From Promethearchaeota archaeon (GTDB taxonomy: Archaea > Asgardarchaeota > Lokiarchaeia > Sigyniarchaeales > SOKP01): DNA of 37,342 bases. Position 1 is the stretch's first letter. Every line of letters starts with the position of its first letter. Position numbers and translations under genes: made by a program. The notes beneath the pieces were generated by a model. That model did not search any database. It was not told the origin of the DNA and saw only the letters and a program-made list of their open reading frames with translations. Below, in pieces: positions 8,375-24,254 of this stretch. The stretch is taken from assembly GCA_004524535.1 (NCBI GenBank), contig SDNY01000025.1, positions 1 to 37,342 on the forward strand. The letters are read 5' to 3'.

Positions 8375-8479
8375 GCTTCTGTAGTGTAGTGCGGTCAAAC
8401 TTCTCCTTAAATTAAGAATAAGGATCACGCATGCGAGGCTCTCACCCTCGCGACCCGGGTTCAAATCCCGGCAGAAGCA
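8375..8479 (+). tRNA. tRNA-Glu(CTC) with an ~30-nt intron in the D-arm (about 8399-8428)
   Basis: Acceptor stem GCTTCTG/CAGAAGC, anticodon arm CGAGG-CT-CTC-AC-CCTCG, T-arm CCGGG-TTCAAAT-CCCGG. Removing about 8399-8428 restores the D-arm GTGT-AGTGCGGTCAA-GCAT. No encoded CCA. Confidence 0.93.
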
Positions 8480-8880
8480 TTATCATCTATTTTATTCAAT
8501 AAATCATATATTTTTGTTAAAATCTTTACGTAACGTTCAATTAAATCTATTTGTGTCTCAATTTTTAATTTTTGAGAAATGTAATCGATCTTTTCTTCAA
8601 TAATCTTTTTTAAAGATTTAAATTTAATATCAGAATTTATTTTAGTTTTTATAAGTTTTTCGTTGTTAATGATTCTTTTTTCTAATGACATATTGGATAT
8701 TTGTTGATTGTTATCATCTTTTTTAACTAAAACCCTTTTATTACAAATTGGACAAAGAATCTCATTATCTTTATTGCGAAAAAGAGGATTGTTACATATT
8801 GGGCATGCTAAATTTAACATCGTATGGCCAGATCGAAGAAGTTCCGCCATTTTTTTAGCTTCTTCTTTAATAATAATCAC
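8461..8880 (-). CDS. UPF0148 / Sjogren's syndrome-scleroderma autoantigen 1 family Zn-ribbon protein
   Basis: KKMAELLRSGHTMLNLACPICNNPLF...CPIC is the characteristic N-terminal signature. Confidence 0.85.
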   Translation of the reverse strand: MIIIKEEAKKMAELLRSGHTMLNLACPICNNPLFRNKDNEILCPICNKRVLVKKDDNNQQISNMSLEKRIINNEKLIKTKINSDIKFKSLKKIIEEKIDYISQKLKIETQIDLIERYVKILTKIYDLLNKIDDNASAGI

Positions 8881-9364: not shown

Positions 9365-10570
9365 ATGAATACTGATTTGTTTGAAGAACTATTAAAGCAG
9401 CCTTCAAATTTCAAAGATGAAAGTACACTTGATATAAATTTTGTTCCAGACAGATTACCACACAGAAGAAAAGAATTGTCTTTACTATCTCAACTTTTTT
9501 TAACACTATTAACAAATCCAAATGTAATTTCAAGAAAAATTTTGATAACTGGGAAAACTGGTATAGGTAAAACTGTTACTGTTAAGTTGTTTGGAATGAT
9601 ATTAAGTGAAGCATCAAAAAAAAGAAATATTTCTCTAAAATATATCCATGTAAATTGTAGAAAAGAACGTACGAGTTATAAAGTATTAATAAAGATTATA
9701 CAATCAATAAATAATAATTTTCCAAAAAGGGGATTTTCTTCACAGGATCTTTTAGAGAGTATAAATAATTATCTTAATATTCAAAATCAACACCTTTTAA
9801 TCGTGCTTGATGAATTAAATTATCTTATAAAAAAAGATAAGGATGTAATTTATTCGTTAACTCGTTTAAACGATGATTCATTTAATGTCCCCCAGAGATT
9901 ATCAATCATTGGAATTGTAAGAGATATTTCTTGTATAAACAATTTAGATGCAAGCACATTAAGTACACTTCAAAGAAATATTATAAATTTTGATGTATAT
10001 ACTAATCAACAAATCTTCGATATTTTAAAATTTAGAGCAGAGCTTAGTTTAAAAAAAAATGTGATATCGGATGAATTAATTAAAATGATATCAAATATAG
10101 TTTTCGTGGAAGGCGATATAAGATATGGTTTAAATTTATTATGGAAGGCTTGCAAAATTGCTGAGAGTAAGGACTTAAAATTGATTACTTCCGAATGTGT
10201 TAGGCTAGCGAATCATGATTTGGTTCCATTTTCAACTTTAGATGTCTTAAAGGACATGCCGGTGCAAAAACTTATATTTTTACTTTCAATTGTAATCCTT
10301 TTAAAAAAAAAAAAAGAACCACAAATATCATTCATGGAGATTTTAAAATCATATCTTGTGTTATGCGAAAATACTGGTATGAATCCTCGCTCTTATTCCC
10401 AACTATGGAACTATCTACAAGAACATAAAAGAGAAAACTTAATAACAATAAATTTAAAGAGTAAAGAGATTAGAGGAAGGAGAGCTTTAGTTGAAATTCA
10501 GGATATACCTTTACCAAAATATGAAGAAATAATCATAGATATTTTGAATTCAAAAGGTATAAATATATGA
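9365..10570 (+). CDS. cdc6: Orc1/Cdc6 replication initiator (AAA+ plus wHTH)
   Basis: FVPDRLPHR, Walker A GKTGIGKT, HVNC, Walker B IVLDE, GDIRYGL. Confidence 0.93.
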   Translation: MNTDLFEELLKQPSNFKDESTLDINFVPDRLPHRRKELSLLSQLFLTLLTNPNVISRKILITGKTGIGKTVTVKLFGMILSEASKKRNISLKYIHVNCRKERTSYKVLIKIIQSINNNFPKRGFSSQDLLESINNYLNIQNQHLLIVLDELNYLIKKDKDVIYSLTRLNDDSFNVPQRLSIIGIVRDISCINNLDASTLSTLQRNIINFDVYTNQQIFDILKFRAELSLKKNVISDELIKMISNIVFVEGDIRYGLNLLWKACKIAESKDLKLITSECVRLANHDLVPFSTLDVLKDMPVQKLIFLLSIVILLKKKKEPQISFMEILKSYLVLCENTGMNPRSYSQLWNYLQEHKRENLITINLKSKEIRGRRALVEIQDIPLPKYEEIIIDILNSKGINI

Positions 10571-10860
10571 TTATTAATGAGAAAAGTAAAAAGTACCTTA
10601 TTGAGGAATTATTAGGTTCCAAGGCAAGATTGAAAATATTAAAAACTCTGGCGCTAAATGAAGAATTAAATATCTCATTAATTATTTCTAAAACGAAATT
10701 AAACCATGCTAATGTTTTAAAACATTTAAATTTTTTAAAATCATTTAATTTAATTCAAGAAAAGAAATTTGGCCGGATTAGAATTTATCGATATAAAAAT
10801 GAAAATATTAAAGCAAGGAGTTTAAAGAATTTCATTGAAATTTGGGAAAGCGATGTTTAA
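10567..10860 (+). CDS. ArsR-like winged-helix transcriptional regulator
   Basis: LLGSKARLKILKTL...HANVLKHLNFLKSFNLIQEKKFGRIRIY. Coupled to cdc6 by an ATGA overlap. Confidence 0.85.
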   Translation: MIINEKSKKYLIEELLGSKARLKILKTLALNEELNISLIISKTKLNHANVLKHLNFLKSFNLIQEKKFGRIRIYRYKNENIKARSLKNFIEIWESDV

Positions 10861-11533
10861 TTTCATGTTATCAATAATATTTGGTATAGATTTTATATTT
10901 ATTGCGATAATTTTAATTTTTTCTCTATATTTCGATTTAAAATTTAGAAGGATTTCGAATAAACATCTTAAAATTTTTTATTTAATTAGTCTAATTCTAA
11001 ATTTTTTAGAATTTTGGATTTTTTATAAAATCTTTTTATTGTTCATTATTTTGAAATTTCTTATTATTATTTTAACATTTCTAATATCTTTACTATTATT
11101 TTCTCTTAAAATTATAGGAGGTGGTGATGGAAAATTAATTATTTTAATATTTTTAACTCATCCAATTAAATATTTGGAATTCGGTTTAGTACTTTTATTC
11201 TTTTTATTATTTTCACTTCTATTTTTTATATTCTTTTTTTCAAACTTCTTAATCAATCATATCGTGAAAAATTCCTATTCATTCGAGATTCTTTTTAGTT
11301 ATAACATTAAGATTTCTGTTTTTAAAAGATTTTATTTGAAAATGTTCTTTAGATTTTTTAATTTATCAGAAATTATAGATTATCAGGGATATAAGAAATC
11401 AATAAAGTCTCAAACGATATTTTATAATAGTATTAAGAAGAAATTACAATTATTTGCTCAATATCAACCACCTCTCGTTATTATGTGTATATTATCCTAT
11501 TACACAATTTTTTTTCTAAAAATAGGATTTTAA
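10853..11533 (+). CDS. Prepilin peptidase (A24 family, FlaK/PibD-like)
   Basis: Multi-TM protein with two aspartate motifs, YFDLKFRRISN and IIGGGDGKL. The ATG at 10853 is preferred over the TTG at 10835. Confidence 0.82.
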   Translation: MFNFMLSIIFGIDFIFIAIILIFSLYFDLKFRRISNKHLKIFYLISLILNFLEFWIFYKIFLLFIILKFLIIILTFLISLLLFSLKIIGGGDGKLIILIFLTHPIKYLEFGLVLLFFLLFSLLFFIFFFSNFLINHIVKNSYSFEILFSYNIKISVFKRFYLKMFFRFFNLSEIIDYQGYKKSIKSQTIFYNSIKKKLQLFAQYQPPLVIMCILSYYTIFFLKIGF

Positions 11534-11898: not shown

Positions 11899-12075
11899 AT
11901 TCTTATTTTATTTTTTTTTTATCTTAAGCTCATTTTTAATCCAAATAAAAGGTTCTATAATATTAAAGATAAAACTTTATTTTCGTAGTTGTATAATGTT
12001 TTAAAAAAATCAAAATATCATTAGTTTAAACTCAAAATTTTTATCCTAGAGAAAATATCTTAAAGATTCTTCTTC

Positions 12076-12085
12076 TTGCCGATAC
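12076..12085 (+). repeat. Left terminal inverted repeat TTGCCGATAC
   Basis: Exact reverse complement of GTATCGGCAA at 20361-20370. Both copies sit at the compositional borders of the element. Confidence 0.55.
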
Positions 12086-12127
12086 TCGTATTAGAGATAA
12101 TATGCTTCGCTTCTTTATTATAAGCCA

Positions 12128-12523
12128 CTATTCAATTTTTATTACTTTCATGGTAATAATTCCCTTGTATCGACATATATCACAATAATAATTTATTTTT
12201 GTATTATTATCATAGACATTATTTAATAAATATAGATTTTTTATTCTTCCACAATTAGCACATTTCCCTTTTAAATATACTACTTTTTTAGCCAACTGAT
12301 GTAAGGAAATATTCGGTAATTCCTCTTTATCTGACATTCTATTTGTCCTAATTCTGTATTCTTTATCTGGATATGACATTAATTTTTCCCCCGTTTTCAT
12401 AGAAAAAATCATGATATAATTTTTAAAATATTTATAATATGCCTTTTCATATTCCCCCACCATTTTATTCTTTTCTTTTTCATACACATATATCGTAGTC
12501 ATTAAGGTATCTCTCCAATTCAT
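12128..12523 (-). CDS. Element protein with C-terminal Zn finger
   Basis: CANC...CDIC. Last gene of the minus-strand array. Confidence 0.75.
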   Translation of the reverse strand: MNWRDTLMTTIYVYEKEKNKMVGEYEKAYYKYFKNYIMIFSMKTGEKLMSYPDKEYRIRTNRMSDKEELPNISLHQLAKKVVYLKGKCANCGRIKNLYLLNNVYDNNTKINYYCDICRYKGIITMKVIKIE

Positions 12524-12748
12524 TTAAGGTATTTCTCCCTTCCATAATTCCCATATTTTCTTATTTTCAATATCTACCATCTTATCCAAGATTTTCGATA
12601 TATTATAATAAGCCGTCTTAATATTTTCTCTTTCTTCCACATTCCCCATAATTCCCACTCTGAAACCATAACTCTGATAATCTTTTGTATATTTCCGATG
12701 CACCGATATTTTTATTTCTTTTACACTTACCACTAACGCATCACCCAC
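12524..12748 (-). CDS. Element hypothetical protein
   Basis: Abuts the downstream gene. The exact start is uncertain. Confidence 0.65.
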   Translation of the reverse strand: MGDALVVSVKEIKISVHRKYTKDYQSYGFRVGIMGNVEERENIKTAYYNISKILDKMVDIENKKIWELWKGEIP

Positions 12749-12761
12749 ATTTCATAAATCT

Positions 12762-12929
12762 TTATTCTAATAAAGCATTCAATTTTTCGATTAAATCCTT
12801 AACTTCATTTTCTTCAAGATACAACATTAATATATCACCATACATATCTTCGAACAGAATTCTAAACAGCTTTCCATTTACACCAACTTTTATCTTTTCT
12901 ATTTCTTCCATTCCAAATTCTATTGGCAT
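12762..12929 (-). CDS. Element hypothetical protein, 55 aa (absent from the ORF track)
   Basis: MPIEFGMEEIEKIKVGVNGKLFRILFEDMYGDILMLYLEENEVKDLIEKLNALLE*. TAATG overlap with the Rep stop codon and an upstream GGTGA SD. Confidence 0.7.
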   Translation of the reverse strand: MPIEFGMEEIEKIKVGVNGKLFRILFEDMYGDILMLYLEENEVKDLIEKLNALLE

Positions 12930-13753
12930 TAATATATCACCTTATCATACATTCCTTTTTTGATATTTTTTATTTTTCTAAATAATTTTCTATATCCATT
13001 TTCCCCAAACGAATCATAATACTCTATAAAGTTCTGTTTCGTAAGCAATAATTTACTAATACACTGATTATACTTTACCATATCACTTTTTTTAAACATC
13101 GGCTTTACAACAAATTGATAACCACGCCCAAAATTCCACTTTTTTCCGCTACTTTTGATTTTTCCTAATTTAGTTGGTTTTAGTAAATCCTTATTTACAT
13201 AATATATTAAATTTCTTTTATGCTGACTTCCTAGACCTTTTAATTCTCGTGCATACACAATTCCTTTACCCCATTTTCTATACAACAAATAACCCATCAT
13301 TATTTCCACATCAGATTTTTTATAATTCATATAGTGTGTTCGTGCTTTTTTTATCATTTTAATTATATCAACTTTCCCTGCTTCCCAACCCTTTCTAAAC
13401 ATTTTTTTTGCTATATATTCCTTATTAAATTTTTTTTTAAATTCAAATAACAAATGAAAATGTGATCTCTGATTTTTCGTTCCTTCTTCATATTTCCAGA
13501 AATATTTTCTTCCTTTGTTATATATCGTTTTTGTATCTCTTAAAAAACCTTCCAATTCTTTTCCACTTGCACCCCCCTTCCTTAACATTTCATTTAATGA
13601 TTCCGTATTATAAGTCAATACTACATGCCATTCCCATTTAATTCCCGTTACCCCTATTATTTTATCCCGCATATCCTGTAATGATTTGCTTATTTTAGGA
13701 TATACATCCCAAAACCCTTCTTCATTATATACCGAATTTACTAATTTACTCAT
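12929..13753 (-). CDS. HUH rolling-circle replication initiator (Rep), catalytic motifs intact
   Basis: Motif I WHVVLTY, motif II YFWKYEEG...RSHFHLLF (HUH), then WGKG, and motif III YYVNKDL (YxxK). Confidence 0.85.
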   Translation of the reverse strand: MSKLVNSVYNEEGFWDVYPKISKSLQDMRDKIIGVTGIKWEWHVVLTYNTESLNEMLRKGGASGKELEGFLRDTKTIYNKGRKYFWKYEEGTKNQRSHFHLLFEFKKKFNKEYIAKKMFRKGWEAGKVDIIKMIKKARTHYMNYKKSDVEIMMGYLLYRKWGKGIVYARELKGLGSQHKRNLIYYVNKDLLKPTKLGKIKSSGKKWNFGRGYQFVVKPMFKKSDMVKYNQCISKLLLTKQNFIEYYDSFGENGYRKLFRKIKNIKKGMYDKVIY

Positions 13754-14589
13754 ACCTTCAATTTCACTTGTTTCTTTATTCCTTTTTTCATTTCCATTAA
13801 ATCATTTATCGTTCTTGCATACACTATTTCCCCAGAATAGTCTCTTTTTTCTGTAAAGTATTTTATAAAATTCTCTTTGGTGCTCTCCAAACTTTTTTCC
13901 GCTTCTTCCACCGATACATTTCCCAGCCATTCATATTCCGATTTTTTTTTTACCTTCTTAGTTTTAATTCCCCTCGAAAATCCATATTTTCTTTTATTTG
14001 GTTTAAACCCTTCCGTTCCCGTTCTTTTAGCCACATCTTTTTCCACTTGCTCAATTAATTCTTCCATCGATGTAATTTCCCTTGCATATACAATTCCCTT
14101 ATCCCATAATCTATACATTGAATATCCCATAATTATATCGTTATCCGATTTTTCCTTATTCATTTCATACCCCTTTTGCACTCGAATTACCTCTTTCATA
14201 TCATTTACCCCCATGACTTTTTCTAGTTCCTTTTTTTTCTTGTCTACATCCTTTAACTCAAATAATAAATGAAAGTGTGGTCGCTCTGATTTCCTCCCTT
14301 CTTCATACTTCCAAAAATGTTTTTCCTCAGGAAATATCTTTTTTATTTTTGTTAAATACCCCCGTAATATCGTTGAATCTATTCCCTTTTTTTTCTTTTC
14401 CTCATAGACTTCACTATTCAATGATAATACGACATGATAGTTCCAATTTACCCCTTCACAATTATATATTTTATGTCGCATTCTCATCGTAGATTGAGAA
14501 ATGGTTTTCATTCCCTTCGGAACACGAATATTATAGAATTCCGCTTCTATATGCCATAATAAAGTAATTTCTACAACCGCAGAACTCAT
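13750..14589 (-). CDS. HUH Rep paralog lacking the motif III tyrosine
   Basis: YHVVLSL, HFWKYEEG...RPHFHLLF, WDKGIVYARE, then EQVEKDV where the paralog has YYVNKDL. Confidence 0.82.
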   Translation of the reverse strand: MSSAVVEITLLWHIEAEFYNIRVPKGMKTISQSTMRMRHKIYNCEGVNWNYHVVLSLNSEVYEEKKKKGIDSTILRGYLTKIKKIFPEEKHFWKYEEGRKSERPHFHLLFELKDVDKKKKELEKVMGVNDMKEVIRVQKGYEMNKEKSDNDIIMGYSMYRLWDKGIVYAREITSMEELIEQVEKDVAKRTGTEGFKPNKRKYGFSRGIKTKKVKKKSEYEWLGNVSVEEAEKSLESTKENFIKYFTEKRDYSGEIVYARTINDLMEMKKGIKKQVKLKV

Positions 14590-14592
14590 TTT

Positions 14593-14805
14593 TTACCTCT
14601 TCAGAAATTTTTCAATACTATTTAATTTTACTTTATACCCACATTCAATATTATTGCAATAATAAATAATGTTATTTCCCTCTTTTTTAAGCCATACCCT
14701 TCCTTCTCCACATCGTGGGCATACCTTGTCTGTTTCCTTACATAAATATTTTTGCCCAATTATTCCCATAATTATTGTCATAATTATTCCCATAATTTTT
14801 TCCAT
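14593..14805 (-). CDS. Small Zn-ribbon protein
   Basis: CPRCG...YCNNIECGY, preceded by a short hydrophobic repeat (IMGII twice). Confidence 0.7.
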   Translation of the reverse strand: MEKIMGIIMTIIMGIIGQKYLCKETDKVCPRCGEGRVWLKKEGNNIIYYCNNIECGYKVKLNSIEKFLKR

Positions 14806-15225
14806 CTATTCCATCCACTCAAGCAATCTATTCGTCATATCTCTAATTTTTTCCAATACCCCATAATTATCCTCAATTATCTTACTTGCATAATTACCAT
14901 TTATTTTTTCAAGTTCTTTCATATATTCTACCGTCCTCCAAAAATGTGATACTAACTTATCAATTTTTATCTTATCAGCTACTTGTTTTTCGTCATTCAC
15001 ATCACTTTTTATTGATACCGCTTTTTCAGAAGACCCCGCTTCTCCCATTTTTTCCAATAACCAACTTTTCACTTTAATTATTTGCAATCCTTCTTTATCT
15101 TTCGAATCTACATCTCTTACTTGCGATTTTGGAAACCATTGTTCTCTTCCATCTGGTAATCTAAATAGGAACGCTTTACCTGATTCCGCTACTAAATAAC
15201 ACTCAAAATCTTTAAACTCACTCAT
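14806..15225 (-). CDS. Virus-type small beta-domain protein (WFPKSQ motif), possibly nucleic-acid binding
   Basis: ESGKAFLFRLPDGREQWFPKSQV resembles a motif common in small phage proteins. GAGGT SD present. The function is inferred. Confidence 0.65.
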   Translation of the reverse strand: MSEFKDFECYLVAESGKAFLFRLPDGREQWFPKSQVRDVDSKDKEGLQIIKVKSWLLEKMGEAGSSEKAVSIKSDVNDEKQVADKIKIDKLVSHFWRTVEYMKELEKINGNYASKIIEDNYGVLEKIRDMTNRLLEWME

Positions 15226-15313
15226 ATTTTTTACCTCTTTTTATTTTATTTTAATCTATTTTATTTTATTTTATTTCATTATAAAAAAAAAAAAAAAGCT
15301 GTTAATTAATTTT

Positions 15314-15727
15314 TTAAATTTTTCTTGAATATGCTCTTGAAGATGAACTTTTACTTGTTTTACCCGAATACTCTTTTTCTTCGTAATTTCTACATCGCCA
15401 GCAAGCTGGTTTCGGTTTAAACATTGGTTTACCTTTATCATCTTTTTTTCCAAAAGTTTTATCCCTATGAATCCCTGACATCATCTGGAATTTTATATAA
15501 TCTTTCCCATCATCCTCATATTTCGGGCATGGAACTTTTTCAAGATTATACATTCTACTTATTGGTATACAGAATAAAATATCTTTCCCACCTCTTGCTA
15601 CTCTTACCCAGATAGCTTTTCCAGATTTTACCGCTACAACACTTCCTCCAGCAATACTGAGCATAATTGATTTCCCATCCATCGTCTTATTATACGCACA
15701 TTCATAAATATAAGTTTTTAGCTCCAT
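15314..15727 (-). CDS. Element basic hypothetical protein
   Basis: 137 aa, Lys-rich, CWRC motif, GAGGTGA SD. Confidence 0.7.
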   Translation of the reverse strand: MELKTYIYECAYNKTMDGKSIMLSIAGGSVVAVKSGKAIWVRVARGGKDILFCIPISRMYNLEKVPCPKYEDDGKDYIKFQMMSGIHRDKTFGKKDDKGKPMFKPKPACWRCRNYEEKEYSGKTSKSSSSRAYSRKI

Positions 15728-15729
15728 TT

Positions 15730-16074
15730 TTATATCTTCACCTCGATAAATTTATCATGATGCTGATATTCTTTCACTTTATTTATGGTATCTTTCACGA
15801 ATTCATTGATTTGGGCTATCGTATCCGCTTCATTTGACTTTGACATTAATTTCTTAAAGGTAATCTCTAATTCTGTTATCAATACCTTTTTCCATTTTTT
15901 TCCCAGTTTCATGACTCCTCTCAGAAATTTCTTGTTTTGACTTGTTATATCGTATCCTAATTTTATCAACAATCTCTTCCATTTTCTCCTATTTGACAAT
16001 ATCCAAATAAAGAAAGTTATTACCGATGTTAAACTAATCGTTACTATCCCACCACCTATTACAATATCAAACAC
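15730..16074 (-). CDS. Element membrane-anchored protein
   Basis: N-terminal TM segment followed by basic RRKWKR and a helical tail. GAGGTGA SD before a GTG start. Confidence 0.75.
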   Translation of the reverse strand: MFDIVIGGGIVTISLTSVITFFIWILSNRRKWKRLLIKLGYDITSQNKKFLRGVMKLGKKWKKVLITELEITFKKLMSKSNEADTIAQINEFVKDTINKVKEYQHHDKFIEVKI

Positions 16075-16085
16075 TTTTTATCACC

Positions 16086-16724
16086 TCAGAACCATCCTTT
16101 TTTCTTCTTCTTCGATTTCTTTGGTTTTGGCAGTTTAAATACCGATTTTACTGTTTTTTTCGCTTTCTTAGAAGAGACTTTTGGTAATGCTATTATACTT
16201 TTTCGCTTCATTGTATTTGCAAATAGTTTTGGCACATCTACTGTTTTTTTCTTAGTCGCCTTTGCGACTGCACTTCCGAAGATACTAAATCTTTTACCAA
16301 CATCCCCGCCCATTTTACTCATACTTTTTGTAATCCCTGACAATCCTTTTGGGATACCTTTTGAGCTCAGCTTCAATCCTTCTCCAATAGTTCCAGAGAA
16401 CATTTTACCTATTCCCCCACCAATATCACTAACTCCACCTGTAATCATTTTCCCAAGACCACTAACTCCACCTGTAACCATTTGTCCAAGTTTACTTAAT
16501 CCACCCATTGCTTGTTGTCCAAGTCCACCTACCCCACCGAAGAAGGTTTCTCCTAATTTGCTAAATCCACCGAACAGTTTACCCCGAAGAACATACCATC
16601 CCACTAACACCGCTCCCGTTACACCCCCGCCTATCAATAGATATTTTATCCATTTCCTTCCCGAACTTCTTTGCCCTTTATTTCCTAACATTCCCATCAT
16701 TTGCGGAACAACAGTCATCGCCAT
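16086..16724 (-). CDS. Gly-rich membrane protein with 11-residue repeats and a Lys-rich tail (putative virion membrane or DNA-pilot protein)
   Basis: TM segment YLLIGGGVTGAVLVGWYVL, then repeats GGFSKLGETFF/GGVGGLGQQAM/GGLSKLGQMVT/GGVSGLGKMIT, then KPKKSKKKKKGWF. Confidence 0.75.
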   Translation of the reverse strand: MAMTVVPQMMGMLGNKGQRSSGRKWIKYLLIGGGVTGAVLVGWYVLRGKLFGGFSKLGETFFGGVGGLGQQAMGGLSKLGQMVTGGVSGLGKMITGGVSDIGGGIGKMFSGTIGEGLKLSSKGIPKGLSGITKSMSKMGGDVGKRFSIFGSAVAKATKKKTVDVPKLFANTMKRKSIIALPKVSSKKAKKTVKSVFKLPKPKKSKKKKKGWF

Positions 16725-16734
16725 TTTTTATCAC

Positions 16735-17157
16735 CTAAATCCTTCGTGAACCGCTACCGCTACGAACTTTTTGTAATTTTGGAACACCTGTTTTTACCGC
16801 ATCAAATAGCTTAGCTCCCCACTTCGTCGCTGTCGCAATATTCTGTAAAAAATCACTGATTCTTTTTAGTAGATCATTATCAATCTGTATCCCAAATGTT
16901 TTAAAGATATTGTCGATAAATTGCATGTTATCTCCTACCGTATCTACCGATTCCGCTAAATCCGAGCTGTTATATACTTTTATTTTATCATACAAAGGAG
17001 CTAACTTTACCCCTACATCAGTCCCTTTATCTATGATAATTAACGCCCCTGCACCAATCAATATCCACGGCAATGCTCTCAACACATTATCTATCGAAAA
17101 AAAATCTGCTAAAAAGTTTTTCGCTGAATCTTCGTCAATCTTTTTTATTTCCGACAT
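16735..17157 (-). CDS. Element membrane protein (putative virion membrane protein)
   Basis: Hydrophobic segment ALPWILIGAGALIII and a basic C-terminus. Confidence 0.7.
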   Translation of the reverse strand: MSEIKKIDEDSAKNFLADFFSIDNVLRALPWILIGAGALIIIDKGTDVGVKLAPLYDKIKVYNSSDLAESVDTVGDNMQFIDNIFKTFGIQIDNDLLKRISDFLQNIATATKWGAKLFDAVKTGVPKLQKVRSGSGSRRI

Positions 17158-17167
17158 CTAAATCCCC

Positions 17168-17911
17168 CTATTGTGATGGGCTTAATAGTTCTTCCACTTC
17201 TTCGGGCAAGAATCCTTTTCCTATTACTAATCGGGTATCAATTGCAATACTACCTGAAATACTACCCCCATTCGTGCTAGCCGCACAATATCCTAATCCA
17301 TGCGAACCAATATATAAATATAGAATATCTTTTAGCTTTTCCACACTAAATGACGATTTTATCGGAGTAAATATAGGTATTGAATTCTTCTTAGTCGTAG
17401 TTGCAATAACACCTTCAGCATTGCTTACAAGACCATTTTCTGGAGTAGTTTGATATGCTGAATACGGAAACCCTATACAATCTTCATTATTCCAAGATGT
17501 TATCGGCTTTCTACTTATCCAATATTTCAAATGCCCCCCTTTCAATCTTGCTACTGCATCTGCGGGCTCACTCGACAAACTCATTGTTATTAGTGTTTGC
17601 ACTCCATATATTTCCACTTCTTTACATGGATATTCAATCAACATATCCTGTGGAAATATATCCCCCGACTCGAACTGCACATTCTCTGGATTTTGGTCGT
17701 ATTCATGGAAATGTTCCGCTTGACTCCCTGCACCAATTGACCCCGCAATGGTTATAGTCCTTGTTTTTTTCTCACTTAACGCCACAAAGCTCTCTCCATA
17801 TCGCATGACAAACCTTCCACTTTCTCTTAGAATTACTTCTAGAGCATTACTTGTTATACTTTTCACTAACCCAATGTTTACTATTTTATTATCCCCTGTT
17901 ATAAAAGTCAT
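17168..17911 (-). CDS. Beta-rich 247-aa protein, candidate major capsid protein
   Basis: Largest non-Rep ORF, with alternating hydrophobic strand patterns and an AGGTGA SD. The ORF is well supported; the capsid role is inference only. Confidence 0.55.
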   Translation of the reverse strand: MTFITGDNKIVNIGLVKSITSNALEVILRESGRFVMRYGESFVALSEKKTRTITIAGSIGAGSQAEHFHEYDQNPENVQFESGDIFPQDMLIEYPCKEVEIYGVQTLITMSLSSEPADAVARLKGGHLKYWISRKPITSWNNEDCIGFPYSAYQTTPENGLVSNAEGVIATTTKKNSIPIFTPIKSSFSVEKLKDILYLYIGSHGLGYCAASTNGGSISGSIAIDTRLVIGKGFLPEEVEELLSPSQ

Positions 17912-17929
17912 ATTTTTTTTTCACCTGCT

Positions 17930-18118
17930 TCATACATCACTTTTAATTTTTAATAATGGTGATAGGTCTTTACGGTCATTCGTGTTAACATTACTAATGC
18001 TCACCCCTACTTGCGATAATCTATTTTGTTGAGCTTCATCCACGATTATTAACACCCCTATTCTTGCACCGACCACAGTTTTATCGCATTCATGAATAAT
18101 ATATAATATTATTTTCAT
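17930..18118 (-). CDS. Element hypothetical protein
   Basis: ATGA overlap with the upstream ORF. Confidence 0.55.
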   Translation of the reverse strand: MKIILYIIHECDKTVVGARIGVLIIVDEAQQNRLSQVGVSISNVNTNDRKDLSPLLKIKSDV

Positions 18119-18303
18119 GGCAATACTCTATTTTCTACTATTTTTTTTACCGATTCATTCTTTTGTCCACATCGAAAAATCGGTCTTAATTTATCAATTC
18201 GCATTTTCCTTTCTTCCAGCCCTACCTTAATAATAGTTCCTTCACAAAAAGGAAAATTATTCCATCTACATCCTATACAGGTTTCATTTATTTTATTTTC
18301 CAT
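18115..18303 (-). CDS. Small Cys-rich element protein
   Basis: CIGCRWNNFPFCEG...FRCG, with a GGAGG SD. Confidence 0.7.
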   Translation of the reverse strand: MENKINETCIGCRWNNFPFCEGTIIKVGLEERKMRIDKLRPIFRCGQKNESVKKIVENRVLP

Positions 18304-18308
18304 TTTTT

Positions 18309-18845
18309 CTAATCCCTCCTTTTTTTAAATACCACTTGAATCGTATATACTTCTACCGACCGACCCGCATGATTTAATTTAATTTGCATTGCTACAATAT
18401 CACCAATTTCAAAATTTTCTTTTCTTAATATATAAAGATATTTTTGTCCACCTAATTCCCCACACGCTGGAAATTCTATATCCACATTATTTTCTACATT
18501 TTCCATAGTCCCTTGTTCAGAACCATCAGTCTTACATGCACCGACATTTAACTTCATATTAACCACCCCTCCATTTGCATCTATTCGCATGAACGGAATA
18601 ATCATTTTTATATCAAAGTTGTCATCCCACTGCTTATCTATATATACCGAACATGATATATTAGCTCCTACTACATTCATTACAATTCCCGGCACATACA
18701 TAATTGCTCCATTCAGATAACTTAACGATAAATTTGTCGTAGTAAACGGTGAACCCACAAAACTCAATACTTCTCCCTTTTTACATTGTGGTCTTATTTT
18801 CCCTACTTCTTTTTCATATTGGTCTATTTCCCATTGTTCTGTCAT
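18309..18845 (-). CDS. Beta-rich protein, paralog B (candidate spike/receptor-binding protein)
   Basis: Alignable over its full length with 18849-19388 (MTEQWE.DQYEK, VGSPF, WD.NFD.K.IIP, DGSE, NVEN.V.I.FP, GDIV). Confidence 0.75.
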   Translation of the reverse strand: MTEQWEIDQYEKEVGKIRPQCKKGEVLSFVGSPFTTTNLSLSYLNGAIMYVPGIVMNVVGANISCSVYIDKQWDDNFDIKMIIPFMRIDANGGVVNMKLNVGACKTDGSEQGTMENVENNVDIEFPACGELGGQKYLYILRKENFEIGDIVAMQIKLNHAGRSVEVYTIQVVFKKRRD

Positions 18846-18848
18846 CTT

Positions 18849-19388
18849 TTATTCCCTTTTTTTTTTATAAGTTATTTCCCACGCATATATTCTTACATCC
18901 CTATCACTTTGATTTAATACTATGCCTATTGATACAATATCCCCCTGATGAATATTTTCACTCCGTAGTAAATATTGATATTTTCCAAAACAATTATACC
19001 CCACATCTGGAAATGTTATACCCACTTCATTTTCTACATTATACCCATCATATTCTTCGCTCCCATCTGAGCTATAAGCATATACTCTTAATTTAAATTG
19101 CACACCCCCGCCACCATTAGTATCGTATCTAAAATACGGAATAATCACTTTTACATCAAAATTTTCATCCCATTTTGAATCTACATACATACTTATTCCC
19201 ACGACATCATTTATTTCACTCATTCGTATTTGGTCGCTACACATAGTTGCTCGATAATAGAAAGGTGTCAAAACAGCCGTATTAAATGGAGATCCTACAT
19301 CCATTACAACATCCCCTTTTTCAACGCATGTCGGTTTTATCTTTTTACAAGCTTTTTCGTATTGGTCAAGTTCCCATTGCTCAGTCAT
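18849..19388 (-). CDS. Beta-rich protein, paralog A (candidate spike/receptor-binding protein)
   Basis: The true start is probably ATG 19388 (MTEQWEL...), which follows GGAGG and matches the paralog's N-terminus. Confidence 0.75.
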   Translation of the reverse strand: MTEQWELDQYEKACKKIKPTCVEKGDVVMDVGSPFNTAVLTPFYYRATMCSDQIRMSEINDVVGISMYVDSKWDENFDVKVIIPYFRYDTNGGGGVQFKLRVYAYSSDGSEEYDGYNVENEVGITFPDVGYNCFGKYQYLLRSENIHQGDIVSIGIVLNQSDRDVRIYAWEITYKKKRE

Positions 19389-19521
19389 TACATGCCTCCA
19401 CATTCCGTATTAAAATCCGTATTATCCCAAACACTTTATTCTTATCCAAAATCTCTGCTTCTTTCCATATATACATTACCGTTTTTTCTATTTCATATTT
19501 CATATCGTCATTTAACTCCAT
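19381..19521 (-). CDS. Element hypothetical protein, 46 aa (absent from the ORF track)
   Basis: MELNDDMKYEIEKTVMYIWKEAEILDKNKVFGIIRILIRNVEACND*. It overlaps the next start (ATGACTGA) and fills the gap in the operon. Confidence 0.6.
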   Translation of the reverse strand: MELNDDMKYEIEKTVMYIWKEAEILDKNKVFGIIRILIRNVEACND

Positions 19522-19525
19522 AATG

Positions 19526-19714
19526 CTATAGACCCCCCAATTTCTTTCCACAATATGGGCAGAATTTCATTCCTTCCCCCATAAACTTTACTCCATTTTC
19601 TTTCGCCAAATAATCTACAATCAACATATAATCCACTAATTTTTGCCATTCTTTACACTTACACTTTTTCAATGAGAAGCACATCCATTGTTCACTTATC
19701 TCAGTCTTTTCCAT
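19526..19714 (-). CDS. Small Zn-binding element protein
   Basis: KCKCKEW...FCPYCGKKL. Confidence 0.7.
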   Translation of the reverse strand: MEKTEISEQWMCFSLKKCKCKEWQKLVDYMLIVDYLAKENGVKFMGEGMKFCPYCGKKLGGL

Positions 19715-19925
19715 GTTCTTCCACCATCCTTTTTAGCTCCATTTTTAGCTCCATTTTTATACGCTCACCTCGATAGACTCTATATACCTGATACTGAATG
19801 CATTTTTTATACTTACAAAAGCAGTAATATTCATTCTTAAATATTGTCTCACATCCTTCAAAATACGGGCATTCCTCCACTCTTACTTGCTGATTCTCTA
19901 TAATATGATTTTCCATTTCCCTCAC
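19701..19925 (-). CDS. Small Cys-rich element protein, first gene of the minus-strand array
   Basis: CPYFEGC...YCFCKYKKCIQY. The start may instead be ATG at 19916. Confidence 0.65.
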   Translation of the reverse strand: MREMENHIIENQQVRVEECPYFEGCETIFKNEYYCFCKYKKCIQYQVYRVYRGERIKMELKMELKRMVEEHGKD

Positions 19926-19952
19926 TTCTTAAAATGTAAGTTCTACGAAAAA
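19923..19952 (-). repeat. Degenerate inverted copy of the 20273-20302 site
   Basis: The reverse complement reads TTTTTCGTAGAA-CTTACA-TTTTAAGAAGTG, with the same 6-bp spacer and similar arms. Confidence 0.7.
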
Positions 19953-20080
19953 CCTAATAGGAAGTATGAAAATAGGAAAAAAAGGAAATATTTAAAAGGA
20001 AAAAATATCACTTTATAAATTGTTGTGTATTGAAATTATCGACATAATTATAAAAAAAAAAAGATCGTGATGTTTTGTAA

Positions 20081-20272
20081 ATGAATGGTTTTGAATATGA
20101 AACTAAAGATAAGGAAGGATGGGAAACTTTTTATATCGTAGAAGAAATGAAAATAAATTACAAACAATGGAATGAAACATTATATTTAGAAGTTAAATAT
20201 ATAGATGCTGATGGAAATCATTCAGAGAAGGAATTCTTTTTTAAAGAAGATATTAAATTAAAAATATATTAA
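20081..20272 (+). CDS. Small acidic protein, the only plus-strand gene of the element
   Basis: 63-aa ATG ORF that lies between the two inverted 30-bp sites. Confidence 0.65.
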   Translation: MNGFEYETKDKEGWETFYIVEEMKINYKQWNETLYLEVKYIDADGNHSEKEFFFKEDIKLKIY

Positions 20273-20302
20273 AAGTTCGTGAAACTTACATTTCACGAAC
20301 TT
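20273..20302. repeat. Perfect palindrome with 12-bp arms and a 6-bp spacer
   Basis: AAGTTCGTGAAA-CTTACA-TTTCACGAACTT. Confidence 0.9.
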
Positions 20303-20360
20303 ACCCCCATATCTTCAGAATACCCTAATAATATCCCCCAAATCTCAATTTGGATTTTTT

Positions 20361-20370
20361 GTATCGGCAA
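20361..20370 (-). repeat. Right terminal inverted repeat GTATCGGCAA
   Basis: Reverse complement of 12076-12085. Confidence 0.55.
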
Positions 20371-20526
20371 AAAAGACTGCCTAAAAAATCCTACACTCTC
20401 ATATTAATAACCCACACTTATACACTTTATATTATCACAAATAAATACTTGTCAAATTAAGATTACTAATGTTGAGATGTGTGCACAATATAATAATTAG
20501 TAATTATAATTAATTATATATATAAT

Positions 20527-20615
20527 ATTACTAGTAATTTATTTAATTATATTATTTAATTATTTATTTATTATTTAATTACTAGTAATTAATTTAATTA
20601 TATTATTTAATTATT
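20527..20615. repeat. 38-bp direct repeat (two copies, 1 mismatch, period 51) in a nearly pure A/T tract
   Basis: ATTACTAGTAATT(T/A)ATTTAATTATATTATTTAATTATT at 20527 and 20578. Each copy begins with the palindrome ATTACTAGTAAT. Confidence 0.8.
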
Positions 20616-20793
20616 AATATTAATTAACAATTATAGATATATTACATATAATAATTGTGAACTTCAATATTACTATTAATTTATTATTGCTATAATTTAT
20701 ATTGAAACCATCTGTAAAGATATAAAATTTTAAATTTAAAAATTTCTATGTTATTAATGAAATTATATAATTCCCTAATGTGAAAAATAAAAA

Positions 20794-21196: not shown

Positions 21197-21697
21197 TTAA
21201 CTTATTTTACTGATGTTATATTCACAAATTTTTAAATTTGAATTTTCAAGACAACAATTAGGTTCAGATACAGATACTTGATATAATGCGTACTCCCCAA
21301 AACCCGATAATAACCCATTAATGAAATAACAAAAATATTTTGATTTGTTTTCTAATACGGATGAGATATTATGACGAAGTTCTATAACAATTAAATCCTC
21401 TGATATTTTTCTAGGAACAAAAAGCCCCCATCCTAGATTATTTATTAAATTACAAAATTGATTTACTAAATCATTTAAAGTTTTTGGTTTTAAATGTTCT
21501 TCCCAGTTTTGTATTAATGTCCAACCTGCTTTTTTCCCTAGCCATACTAATAAAGATTTTACACCTTCACCATAAATAGACGATAAAATATCAATTAATT
21601 GGGGGGGGAAAAAAACGAAACGATCGTTAAATAATTGAAATATACCATTATTATATTTTAAACCTTTTAATTTTAAGATTCTCATAATTATAATCAT
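21197..21697 (-). CDS. V4R domain protein (Bet3/TRAPP-related fold)
   Basis: LGKKAG...LGWG...CYFINGLLSG...VSEPNCCLE...CEY pattern. Confidence 0.8.
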   Translation of the reverse strand: MIIIMRILKLKGLKYNNGIFQLFNDRFVFFPPQLIDILSSIYGEGVKSLLVWLGKKAGWTLIQNWEEHLKPKTLNDLVNQFCNLINNLGWGLFVPRKISEDLIVIELRHNISSVLENKSKYFCYFINGLLSGFGEYALYQVSVSEPNCCLENSNLKICEYNISKIS

Positions 21698-22321: not shown

Positions 22322-23848
22322 CTAAAAAAGCATTATAATATTCATGAACGATATAAAGAATGATAATATGTACACTATACTTGAAATTAAATTTATTAAG
22401 ATTTTTTTTTCGAAATTAATAATCTTTAAAAAATAATAACATGTTATCAAGTTGCTAAAAAATAATGTCAAGAATATTACTATAAGATCCAAAATATTAA
22501 TCAATTCAATGTAATCATTATATGAAAAGCTTCCTAACTGATCTATATTCTTAGTTAACATAATAAACAATGGAATCATTCCTCCGATCGATCCGATTAT
22601 TATTGGTAAAAGAAATATAAAAATTAGTACTTTAAATTTTTCACCTTTAATTATTATAGTAAGTTTTCTTTCAAGTCTTCTATGTTTAGAAATAATTTCT
22701 AAGATTTCTATAACTTTATCTGCAGAATAATAAGAATTTTCATCTAACATCCTTTCTATCACATCTATTATTATTATATAACGTAAAGATTTTAATTCAT
22801 CTTTCAATAAATTCAATATTTCACCAAATGAACAAGAAAAATTCAATAGACGAGATATTTGTGGTTCAAATGGTGTATTTAATATTTTGTAGAATTTTTT
22901 ATTTTGTAAATAAGCGTTAGTAAAAGCAATTTCTGGTGAAATATTAGCTTTTAAATTTAGAGCAAAATTTTTTAAAAATATTTGAAATTCATCAAATTTT
23001 CTTTTTTCTTTATTAGAATATTCTTTTAATAAACCAAGGAGTAATATATTAATTCTTATTAATTTTCGGAATAAAAAATTTAACAAAATTAAGAAGAAAG
23101 GAATAAATAAAATAATCAAAATTGTATTAATTTGCTGAAATAAGATTAGAAAACATAATCCTATTGGAAAAAAAAATCCTATAAAGAAAACAATACTAAT
23201 TTTCGATTCTATGTCTCTTAAAACAACTTTAAAATTTCTTTCTGAAGTGTTATCATCTAAATTTTGAAATTCATAATCAGTATTAAAATCATTAATAATC
23301 AAATCTCTTAAATAATGATTAAAGTCTTCAGAAGGAGTTACAATTTTTAATAATTCTTTTTCAGGAGTATATCCTTCATGAATTTTTCTTAAAATAATTT
23401 TGCAGCTTTCGGATACAGGTAAATTATAATTTTTAATTAATTCAATAAAATTTATAGAATAATCAGTATTTATTTTTAAAGTTTTTTTAATTAGAGAGAA
23501 ATTAATTATGATTAAATAAAGTAAAGCATTTAATATCGATTCTTCCTTTTTTATTTTTTTATATAAGTGTGAATTGAATCGATAAGATGCTAATAAGGAA
23601 AGCACCAATGAATAAAAGATAATTATTAGTATACTAAAGGGTGTGAAAAATAACGACAAGATTATTGATATGATGAAAAATAATGAAAAAATTACAAAGC
23701 TAGCTTTATTGATATCATCTTCATCAATATTAAATTTATTTCTATATAAATATCTATACCAATCATTTAATTCTTTAAATTTTATTTTTGGAAATTTATA
23801 ATCATGAAATATTTTGCAAAATCTTAGATATTTTTTTAAATTAGTCAT
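22322..23848 (-). CDS. Type II/IV secretion system membrane platform protein (TadC/FlaJ-like)
   Basis: Multi-TM protein with two cytoplasmic domains (EGYTPEKEL, ANISPEIAF), downstream of the secretion ATPase. Confidence 0.7.
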   Translation of the reverse strand: MTNLKKYLRFCKIFHDYKFPKIKFKELNDWYRYLYRNKFNIDEDDINKASFVIFSLFFIISIILSLFFTPFSILIIIFYSLVLSLLASYRFNSHLYKKIKKEESILNALLYLIIINFSLIKKTLKINTDYSINFIELIKNYNLPVSESCKIILRKIHEGYTPEKELLKIVTPSEDFNHYLRDLIINDFNTDYEFQNLDDNTSERNFKVVLRDIESKISIVFFIGFFFPIGLCFLILFQQINTILIILFIPFFLILLNFLFRKLIRINILLLGLLKEYSNKEKRKFDEFQIFLKNFALNLKANISPEIAFTNAYLQNKKFYKILNTPFEPQISRLLNFSCSFGEILNLLKDELKSLRYIIIIDVIERMLDENSYYSADKVIEILEIISKHRRLERKLTIIIKGEKFKVLIFIFLLPIIIGSIGGMIPLFIMLTKNIDQLGSFSYNDYIELINILDLIVIFLTLFFSNLITCYYFLKIINFEKKILINLISSIVYILSFFISFMNIIMLF

Positions 23849-23860
23849 TAGATTTTTTTC

Positions 23861-24238
23861 CTATAAAATCATTATTATTAAATATAAGCTATTAAGGGAG
23901 CTTTTCAATAAAAAAAACTCAATTGGTCCTAGAATTAATTTAAAAGTTTTTTCTTTCGGATTATAGTAAAATCTAGAATAAGTATTTTTAAAGAATATTT
24001 CCAAATATCTTAAGTATTCAACATTTACAAAAGATATTTCTTCGTTTTTTTCGATATTTTCGTTATTTTCATAGAATGTTATGATTATTGAGTCATTATT
24101 ATAATCATCTAAGCCTCTTTTATCATTTTCCTTAAAATCTGTTATTTTTCCAAAAAAAGGAGTTATAAGAATAAAGAAAATAGTTAAAATAAAAATTCCA
24201 AAACCAATAAGTAATGCTTTTTCCAATAAATTTGTCAT
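23861..24238 (-). CDS. Pilin-like or membrane-anchored small protein
   Basis: N-terminal LLEKALLIGFGIFILTIFFILI resembles an archaeal pilin helix. It lies between the ATPase and platform genes. Confidence 0.5.
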   Translation of the reverse strand: MTNLLEKALLIGFGIFILTIFFILITPFFGKITDFKENDKRGLDDYNNDSIIITFYENNENIEKNEEISFVNVEYLRYLEIFFKNTYSRFYYNPKEKTFKLILGPIEFFLLKSSLNSLYLIIMIL

Positions 24239-24254
24239 AAAAACTTTTTATAGT

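Follow-up and report, generated by a model that had tools for sequence, protein, structure and literature searches.

What kind of element is the compact array of small genes in the middle of contig SDNY01000025.1 of Promethearchaeota archaeon (assembly GCA_004524535.1), and how did it come to lie there without an integrase? The window analyzed here is the whole stretch of 37,342 nucleotides; this 37-kb sequence is an entire contig and belongs to a bin of 3.66 Mb with 99% completeness. An earlier note, made from the letters alone, had proposed a rolling-circle provirus of about 8.3 kb between 12076 and 20370, belonging to a possibly undescribed archaeal family. The element was found to occupy 12061-20714 (8,654 bp), with its genes on the minus strand, and it is a precisely bounded, recently mobile member of a small orphan family. 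It is probably the provirus of a small rolling-circle, virus-like element with a single jelly-roll capsid that infects Loki-type Asgard archaea. In line with the note, the family was not found described in the available parts of the Asgard virus literature, and we read it as a new one.

Insertion and boundaries

The insertion is visible directly in assembled data. Contigs of three of the four sequencing runs examined (X7, X2 and X5) carry a direct joint from 12060 to 20715 in which 8,654 bp are skipped; the three runs belong to three studies, one being that of the probable source and two being others. One of these empty-site contigs, of 1,281 bp, shows few differences from the window. At the joint, seven letters are compatible with either side, and the empty site holds a single TAAAGAT, located within a 15-bp palindrome. 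In the window this heptamer is present as a direct repeat:

12061-12067: TAAAGAT, copy 1 of the 7-bp direct repeat, at the low-coordinate end and inside the element
20715-20721: TAAAGAT, copy 2, on the host side

The spacing of the flanking genes is consistent with the joints. The distance between the Orc1/Cdc6 gene (9365-10570) and the gene for a 166-amino-acid (aa) protein (21197-21697) is 10.6 kb in the window and 0.8-3.2 kb on one contig in 10 of 29 related genomes. In alignments with two genomes of the same genus (G001, G006), homology stops at 11904/11905 and restarts at 20715, a diverged spacer of about 133 bp lying between. The element is single-copy in its own genome. Because empty-site contigs come from three other runs and the flanking genes lie close together in ten relatives, the element is a real, polymorphic insertion, absent from near-identical strains. 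The integrated mobile element of the earlier note is thereby borne out, and the comparison of related genomes, one of the checks that it had listed, indicates that the region is not core genome. Its ends had to be moved by 15 bp and 344 bp, respectively. A 9-bp inverted pair (TTGCCGATA / TATCGGCAA, at 12076 and 20362), each member of which occurs once in the window, has 12076 and 20370 as its outer edges, and these positions were rejected as boundaries.

The jelly-roll protein and its gene module

The reading as a virus-like element depends above all on one gene and on the three small genes that trail it:

17168-17911, minus strand: 247-aa single jelly-roll protein, candidate major capsid protein
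16735-17157, minus strand: 140-aa protein with one membrane helix, adjoining the jelly-roll gene in all relatives whose sequence extends far enough
16086-16724, minus strand: 212-aa protein, single membrane helix, repeats rich in Gly and a tail rich in Lys
15730-16074, minus strand: 114-aa protein, membrane helix at the N-terminus

The 247-aa protein is the best-conserved gene product of the element family, with 35 relatives at 49-67% identity, compared with approximately 25-40% for other element genes (tblastn). A profile search of 1.84 billion cluster representatives returned only seven clusters, all at E<=5e-17, and the protein family is small and isolated. The AlphaFold2 model, obtained from a 36-sequence alignment, has a predicted local distance difference test score (pLDDT) of 86.7 and a predicted template modelling score (pTM) of 0.83. 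It is all-beta, with eight long strands and short helices past the second strand, so that the protein described as beta-rich in the earlier note is modelled as a single jelly-roll. A search of the PDB with Foldseek gave 64 matches at E<=1e-3, and among the matches listed all are viral capsid proteins, from noda-, circo-, picorna-, birna-, sobemo- and nanoviruses; probabilities of 0.99-1.00 were reached for noda-, circo- and picorna-like capsids. Against BFVD, 302 matches were obtained at E<=1e-3, the best being capsid proteins of CRESS-DNA viruses at E 5e-6. When the Foldseek candidates were aligned with VIA-align, the best Z was 6.7, for poliovirus VP1 (144 residues, root-mean-square deviation 3.7 A). 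When VIA-align was run without Foldseek, the best Z was 6.6, the leading matches being tobacco ringspot virus, cowpea mosaic virus and a nodavirus; 55 chains had Z>=5, none had Z>=8, and most of the top 50 were capsid proteins. The single jelly-roll fold is thus well supported at the level of the model. On account of the ranking of the matches, the conservation of the gene and its context, we infer that the protein is a capsid protein, and the structural check that the note had called for ended in a capsid-type fold. No larger beta-rich protein is encoded in the element.

The three membrane proteins announced by the note were recovered, with one strong hydrophobic segment in each, and in all relatives of sufficient length their genes come after the jelly-roll gene in an unchanged order. 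These three predicted single-pass proteins are the basis, and the only one, of the idea that a particle may contain a membrane. The 212-aa protein has 41 Lys and Arg residues against 5 Asp and Glu residues, which would suit a membrane-anchored DNA-binding role.

Rep proteins and composition of the gene array

The replication block contains two related proteins:

12929-13753, minus strand: Rep1, 274 aa, rolling-circle endonuclease of the HUH type, all three motifs (I-III) and Tyr present
13750-14589, minus strand: Rep2, 279 aa, paralogue of Rep1 (39% identity) with motifs I and II kept and Gln at the catalytic Tyr

Rep1 matches Pfam family PF23343 (REP_ORF2-G2P) with 29.3 bits, above the cut-off of 27.8, at E 1.1e-6, and therefore belongs to this HUH superfamily. 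Its motifs are HVVLTYN (I), HFHLLFEF (II) and YYVNKD (III), where motif I was taken as the hydrophobic-T-hydrophobic-T type, motif II as HxH plus hydrophobic residues, and motif III as the catalytic Tyr in YxxK. An alignment with four relatives gave HVVLT for motif I, HFHLLFEF or HYHLLFDF for motif II, and YVxKD for motif III. Rep2 reached 16.4 bits against the same family, below the cut-off, and fails in motif III alone. Accordingly, of the two HUH Reps that the note had counted, both carry the HUH motif and one has lost the catalytic tyrosine.

The loss is not confined to this genome. Among the 40 members of the Rep family, collected from 5.8 billion proteins, the motif III residue is Tyr in 36, Gln in 2 (Rep2 and P0077) and Phe in 1, the remaining one being a fragment without the region. 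The order Rep2 then Rep1 with the same Gln also occurs in P0077, and it is found with Gln in the first member in the same-genus genome G007 (C119). The pair thus consists of one complete enzyme and one conserved tyrosine-less paralogue. Since Gln replaces Tyr, Rep2 would form no covalent intermediate through that residue, and an accessory or regulatory role as a subunit is more likely. In more distant relatives there is one longer Rep, of 340-457 aa, with a zinc-ribbon insertion. No match of the Rep profile to PDB sequences was found, no helicase family matched the Reps, and no helicase domain was found anywhere in the element.

The array around these genes is as compact as the note had described it, with about 20 coupled open reading frames (ORFs) on one strand. 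There are 19 ORFs on the minus strand at 12128-19925, 55-279 aa in length and all open, in which 7,635 of 7,798 bases are coding. The gaps between them are -26 to +18 nt, the sole exception being 88 nt between the 137-aa and 139-aa ORFs, and GGTGA- or GAGG-type ribosome-binding sequences precede most of them. The GC content of the block is 0.30-0.38, compared with 0.20-0.25 in the surroundings. On the coding strand of the element C amounts to only 8.7% and the GC skew is +0.46; in six host genes, each read along its coding strand, the skew is 0.02-0.19. As both GC content and coding-strand skew depart from the surroundings, the block is not a chance pattern. The same composition is observed in five relatives (C 8.4-10.5%, skew +0.35 to +0.55; two host flanks, -0.01 and +0.18). 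The C-poor coding strand is thus a family trait that fits a replicon whose coding strand is at times single-stranded, which is no proof of a virion with single-stranded DNA.

The Pfam scan covered the 19 same-strand ORFs and an opposite-strand ORF of 63 aa, while the PHROGs and NCBIfam scans covered ten ORFs each. No integrase, transposase, polymerase or terminase family rose above the Pfam cut-off or appeared via NCBIfam or PHROGs, and no Walker-A motif is present in any of the six frames of the element, as the note had stated. Packaging ATPase, portal and scaffold were likewise not found by the family and Walker-A scans, and no Cas1 family rose above the cut-off. One weak line below threshold linked Rep1 to the transposase family DDE_Tnp_ISL3 (E 0.018, 15.3 bits, cut-off 23). 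With no integrase family in the element ORFs scanned, an unrecognisable recombinase may be present among the small orphan proteins.

Family and distribution

The relatives comprise 36 capsid-like proteins and 40 Reps, and related loci were located on 4 contigs of the genome collection and 14 metagenome contigs, synteny being kept in these 18 loci. The capsid-like gene is present in 3 of 399 Asgard genomes, all in the taxonomic family of the window. The named bins are Promethearchaeota Loki_b31 and Hermodarchaeota, the other copies being on sediment contigs; as far as searched, the element family is confined to Loki/Hermod-type Asgard archaea. Two short family contigs (L004, L007) lie in bins called 'uncultured bacterium' and 'Candidatus Peregrinibacteria'. 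Misbinning is the probable cause, since all longer copies have Asgard context. Several relatives are on contigs of 7.7-9.1 kb, which is about the size of the element.

The copies sit at different places in host genomes. That of Loki_b31 (L005) is integrated past a coiled-coil gene which is 93-94% identical in element-free relatives; the gene was considered as part of the element and rejected, as a host gene kept in genomes free of it. The right flank of this copy has no counterpart in relatives, and its right end is not delimited. The L009 copy adjoins genes for gelsolin, thioredoxin, ferredoxin and triose-phosphate isomerase, and the flank of the L010 copy differs again from both. Judged from these flanks, at least three family copies appear to be integrated at different host loci. 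No integrase was found among the element ORFs scanned in L005, L009, L012, L015 and L017. Coiled-coil proteins are encoded beside two copies, on opposite sides (L005:7062-7802, the host gene, and L017:6190-6756), and their similarity may be only compositional.

Integration sites and proposed mechanism

Read on the coding strand, the element starts with CAGATGGTTTC directly after host ATCTTTA, and it ends with ATCTTTA, the host continuing with AGATAT. Three other copies start with (C/A/T)AGATAG(T/G)T(T/C)ATAAC after host CTTTT, GTTTT and CCTTT. The element shares with L005, L009 and L010 a conserved terminus, AGAT(A/G)G(T/G)T, preceded by T-rich host sequence. In all four independent insertions the host side is T-rich and ends in TTT(A/T), which points to a preferred site and not to an arbitrary duplication. 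The host site in the window genome thus resembles the end region of the element on both sides of the crossover. The two ends of the element are not inverted repeats of each other, and no terminal inverted repeats were found. The heptamer TAAAGAT is common, with 25 copies in the window, and recognition must therefore extend beyond it. The nick-region sequence may also resemble the gene II nick region of filamentous phages.

As to the route of integration, the Rep is slightly favoured, at somewhat less than an even chance, because none of the copies has a recognised recombinase gene and the strands cross over at the would-be 3' side of the nick site; a host recombinase acting on a short common core is credited with nearly as much. 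The proposed cycle would be as follows. A circular double-stranded form would arise by excision or by a copy-out step. Rep1 would nick this form beside the heptamer at the element end and would then drive synthesis of the C-poor coding strand by the rolling-circle mode. An icosahedral shell would be built of the 247-aa protein, the membrane proteins together with the very basic 212-aa protein would organise a lipid layer, the DNA or both, and a pair of proteins resembling carbohydrate-binding modules (CBMs) would bind glycans at the host surface. Integration would proceed without an integrase: the Rep, or failing that a host recombinase, would join the element to sites in the host similar to its own nick region, which on the coding strand would be ATCTTTA then AGAT. 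In the Rep version, the enzyme would nick after the heptamer in the circle, nick the chromosomal look-alike and join the strands across; the filled site has the structure that such a reaction would leave, and this structure also fits the host recombinase. A fuller proposition can be put forward only tentatively and is rather doubtful as a whole. It holds that the element is the first representative of a small Asgard virus family with HUH Rep and single jelly-roll capsid whose proviruses need no integrase, and that its own Rep, together with the tyrosine-less paralogue, cuts a host mimic of the nick site (ATCTTTA then AGAT) and joins the viral strand, the heptamer being left on both sides.

Weighing of alternative explanations

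Several results count against a provirus of a capsid-forming element. The structural scores are modest, with a best Z of 6.6-6.7 and none of 8 or more, and cellular jelly-rolls (Cry toxin domain III, CBMs and PNGase F) come within about one Z unit. The 247-aa protein lacks a basic N-terminal arm, a feature common in capsid proteins of small single-stranded DNA and RNA viruses, and 8.65 kb is large for a T=1 shell of such a protein. PHROGs gave no structural-gene match. No family member was found in IMG/VR with either the capsid or the Rep query. No terminal overlap indicating circularity was present among the related contigs examined. The junction check that the note had proposed yielded, besides the empty-site joints in three runs, no circular-junction joint in the contigs examined, where rare forms are lost. 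At the computed circle junction no hairpin is better than in shuffled sequence (z -1.8 to +0.7), and this absence gives no help to the Rep model. The spacer search suggested by the note was also negative: the host genome has no CRISPR array by repeat scan (just three 3-copy repeats that are not array-like), and a DNA search of 133 family genomes gave AT-rich or chance matches and no spacer-like one, the best two short high-identity matches (G004, G221) being without flanking repeats.

Part of the evidence lends some weight to the main alternative, an integrative rolling-circle plasmid, in which the jelly-roll and CBM-like proteins would be surface or adhesion cargo and no particle would be made: the capsid similarity is moderate, with cellular folds close behind, packaging ATPase, portal and scaffold were not found, the element is absent from IMG/VR, and HUH Reps of the same Pfam family also serve plasmids. 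Nevertheless, the jelly-roll gene is the most conserved one and is always in a fixed module with the three small membrane proteins, so that a structural module fits better than cargo; moreover, the 247-aa protein has neither signal peptide nor membrane segment, and its best Foldseek matches are overwhelmingly capsid proteins. A plasmid is therefore considered unlikely. Less probable still is a satellite or defective provirus with its own Rep and some virion parts, relying on a helper virus for the rest. The small genome and the missing packaging enzyme would suit it, and an Asgard virus satellite is proposed in the accessible part of a preprint (10.64898/2026.08.12.739948). Yet relatives of 8-9 kb share a conserved gene set that looks complete, none of the 19 ORFs is interrupted, and no helper-like element is seen in the window. 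A rolling-circle transposon of the IS91 or Helitron kind, carrying passenger genes and moving only within genomes, would account for the HUH enzyme, the lack of terminal inverted repeats, the short specific target and the insertion sites that differ between genomes. It is a highly improbable reading, as the element is single-copy and just 3 of 399 Asgard genomes were found to contain it, the majority of family Reps have a single tyrosine and lack a helicase domain, approximately 5 kb is a conserved structural-looking module, and contigs of 7-9 kb with seemingly little else suggest free genomes. That an unrelated small contig was joined to host DNA in assembly has in its favour that the window comes from a metagenome bin and that the sole run with the whole window may be its own source. 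Such a chimera is very unlikely, because the break coincides exactly with a 7-bp repeat, of which the empty-site contigs of three other runs have a single copy, and the left terminus matches three other copies integrated elsewhere. The provirus with a single jelly-roll capsid is thus retained as the probable explanation.

Comparison with known systems

The closest in kind are Microviridae and CRESS-DNA viruses, and the closest in host and size are the alphapleolipoviruses; the element fails defining features of all of these and of FLiP. Shared with Microviridae are the small replicon, the HUH Rep, the single jelly-roll capsid protein, the genes on one strand and chromosomal residence without an own integrase, as in the integrated gokushovirus-like proviruses of Bacteroidota. 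The genomes of Microviridae are smaller (4.4-6.5 kb versus 8.65 kb), the structural genes of the element have no PHROGs match, and its capsid-like protein is about half the size of the microvirus F protein; in addition, the element has membrane and CBM-like proteins and an archaeal host. With Cressdnaviricota, of which Smacoviridae have been proposed to infect methanogenic archaea, the element shares an HUH Rep plus a single jelly-roll capsid protein, and their capsids are the best BFVD matches. Their Reps carry a superfamily-3 helicase with Walker A, whereas the element Reps of 274-279 aa have no Walker-A motif and no helicase family match; their genomes have 2-6 kb and 2-6 genes, and the identity of the element protein to their capsid proteins is 7-14%.

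Finnlakeviridae, with the virus FLiP, are alike in size (about 9 kb), rolling-circle Rep, predicted membrane proteins and the absence of a recognised packaging ATPase. The analogy drawn in the note fails on the capsid protein, which in FLiP has two beta-barrels while here a single jelly-roll is modelled, and FLiP has a bacterial host. For a FLiP-like circular single-stranded DNA genome within an internal membrane, hints are indirect and limited to the three predicted single-pass membrane proteins and the strong strand asymmetry. Alphapleolipovirus, in the Pleolipoviridae, resembles the element in archaeal host, size (7-10 kb), HUH Rep, membrane proteins and integrated copies; pleolipoviruses are not known to possess a capsid protein, and integrases serve their proviruses, in contrast to the jelly-roll and the lack of an integrase here.

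Mobile elements other than viruses were compared in the same way. IS91 and Helitron elements are defined by a two-tyrosine Rep (with a helicase in Helitrons), many copies per genome and no structural genes. The present element is single-copy, lacks a helicase, has mostly one Tyr in motif III and carries a 5-kb conserved structural-looking module. With no inverted-repeat ends, a T-rich preferred site, and no transposase or Cas1 above cut-off, it does not belong with DDE transposons or casposons, and with no integrase gene in the ORFs scanned it is not a provirus with its own tyrosine or serine recombinase. By contrast, the single jelly-roll capsid fold is present in the 247-aa model, with modest scores.

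Known Asgard viruses are, in the accessible parts of the reports, tailed, double jelly-roll (Skuldviridae, Fylgjaviridae), spindle-shaped or filamentous (10.1101/2021.07.29.453957; 10.64898/2026.02.13.705702). Verdandi-, skuld- and wyrdviruses and Fylgjaviridae have an Asgard host in common with the element, and the sediment metagenome series is shared in part as well (JABUB... and Ga01149... contigs). According to the accessible text, some wyrdviruses have HUH Reps, and Fylgjavirus 1 integrates outside tRNA genes; skuld- and fylgjaviruses differ in having double jelly-roll proteins and packaging ATPases. Two 'enigmatic' circular mobile genetic elements of 8,776 bp, 7H_11 and 8H_18, are described by Medvedeva et al. 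(10.1101/2021.07.29.453957) as largely unannotatable targets of Thorarchaeia spacers. They are similar in size and equally hard to annotate, and come partly from the same metagenome series as the related contigs; Topo mini-A is reported for 8H_18 and was not found in the element family, and the two may overlap with this family. One Asgard homologue of Rep-Arvir, a different Rep family, appears in the accessible part of PMC13107129; the Rep of the element matches PF23343 instead, the distinction being one of family description. In the available text of a 2026 Microbiome survey (PMC13700489) the whole words 'rolling' and 'HUH' are both absent.

In the literature on Asgard viruses, as far as its text was available, no element with both a single jelly-roll protein and an HUH Rep was found, and in none of the virus groups treated there do a rolling-circle Rep and a single jelly-roll capsid protein occur together. 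This combination defines small single-stranded DNA viruses of bacteria and, above all, of eukaryotes. The element is therefore a concrete object for asking about the origin of small jelly-roll DNA viruses. It is also a clean natural case of integrase-free, sequence-targeted integration in which filled and empty alleles are both available, and it carries a Rep pair with one active-looking and one tyrosine-less member.

Paralogous candidate beta-sandwich proteins

Upstream of the jelly-roll gene, two paralogous genes are located:

18309-18845, minus strand: 178-aa paralogue 1, N-terminal helix plus CBM-like beta-sandwich, candidate host-recognition protein
18849-19403, minus strand: 179/184-aa paralogue 2, 48% identical to paralogue 1

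The note was right that these are paralogous and beta-rich; they resemble CBMs, in a model of low confidence, and not capsid proteins. The AlphaFold2 model has a pLDDT of 58.7 and a pTM of 0.58. With VIA-align it aligns with CBM families 35, 36 and 6 and with Cry toxin domain III, at Z up to 13.4 and with 135 chains at Z>=8. The closest ESM Atlas clusters by features (0.94-0.95) and by structure (template modelling score 0.72) are unnamed and 89-100% viral by record. As a lead, the pair look like carbohydrate-binding beta-sandwiches. No homologue of the pair was found outside the window by a word-based search.

At the position of the pair, relatives have different paralogous proteins with a conserved N-terminal domain and variable C-termini (L005:8604-9581, L009:4266-4862, L010:3621-4616, L011:534-1517, L012:1418-2314), for which Pfam gave no match. 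The invariant N-terminal domain reads SYP..PE.GWYYVV....GDWI.WNGT.WD. The longer ones have an additional GW.V.NG...TP motif, which we take to be reminiscent of phage tail-collar domains. A variable glycan-binding-like module with a shared N-terminus, placed beside a capsid gene, would be as expected of host-recognition proteins.

Other genes and repeats of the element

The remaining features of the element are as follows:

20490-20714: AT-rich non-coding end with two 41-nt direct repeats, candidate origin or Rep-binding region
20081-20272, plus strand: sole opposite-strand ORF, 63 aa, within the element
19381-19925, minus strand: three overlapping small ORFs of 56, 62 and 74 aa; the 62-aa protein is a Zn-ribbon, the 74-aa protein is Cys-rich and conserved in relatives
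17930-18118 and 18115-18303, minus strand: two 62-aa ORFs, the second with four Cys
15314-15727, minus strand: 137-aa basic Cys-containing protein, conserved in the family
14593-15225, minus strand: 70-aa Zn-ribbon protein and 139-aa protein, first genes of the replication module past the 88-nt gap
12128-12929, minus strand: three small ORFs of 55, 74 and 131 aa past Rep1, the 131-aa one with CxxC pairs

The Zn fingers expected from the note correspond to CxxC pairs in several small element proteins. For the ORFs at 14593-15225, weak Pfam Zn-ribbon matches were obtained together with phrog_8389 (function not assigned, E 3.5e-6). The 74-aa protein of the group past Rep1 matches the N-terminus of an approximately 230-aa protein in relatives.

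Several repeats were observed. A 24-nt inverted repeat (19926-19949 / 20276-20299) encloses the 63-aa ORF. The two 41-nt direct repeats, at 20527-20618, are 51 nt apart, and each opens with ATTACTAGTAAT, a perfect 12-bp palindrome. Another direct repeat, of 34 nt and 91% identity, is found at 15715-15748 and 19742-19775; its first copy spans the ribosome-binding site and first codons (MELK) of the 137-aa ORF, and its second, accompanied by a 12-nt tandem copy, falls within the final part of the 74-aa ORF. A recombination scar or the reuse of a translation start may explain it. The T-rich stretch 12949-13003, at the junction of Rep1 and the 55-aa ORF, has short matches of 80-93% in several related genomes, and several unrelated contigs break there when aligned to the window; it is probably low-complexity sequence.

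Host context

The Asgard-like host named in the note is in agreement with the rest of the contig. An archaeal 16S rRNA gene is located at the contig start, and the taxonomic family of the window in the genome collection includes Promethearchaeota archaeon Loki_b31 (G237, the contig of L005). An Arf-family small GTPase at 5738-6427 on the minus strand (Pfam PF00025, E 2.5e-17) is a eukaryote-like signature protein that fits an Asgard host; a related integrated copy (L009:142-741) adjoins a gene for a gelsolin-repeat protein. No RNA run was present among the public sequencing runs that contain the element.

The left neighbour of the insertion is a type IV prepilin peptidase (A24) gene (10835-11533, plus strand). 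At 22322-26453 on the minus strand, 1.6 kb past the right end, are genes for a large membrane protein with multiple passes and for a T2SSE/type IV secretion-type ATPase. Together, the peptidase, membrane protein and ATPase resemble a pilus or archaellum-like locus next to the Orc1/Cdc6 gene. At 8375-8479 on the plus strand, Rfam called a tRNA of 105 nt over the full 71-position model with 54 bits, overlapping the end of the ORF 8461-8880; ARAGORN found no tRNA in the window, and the call is probably an intron-containing archaeal tRNA.

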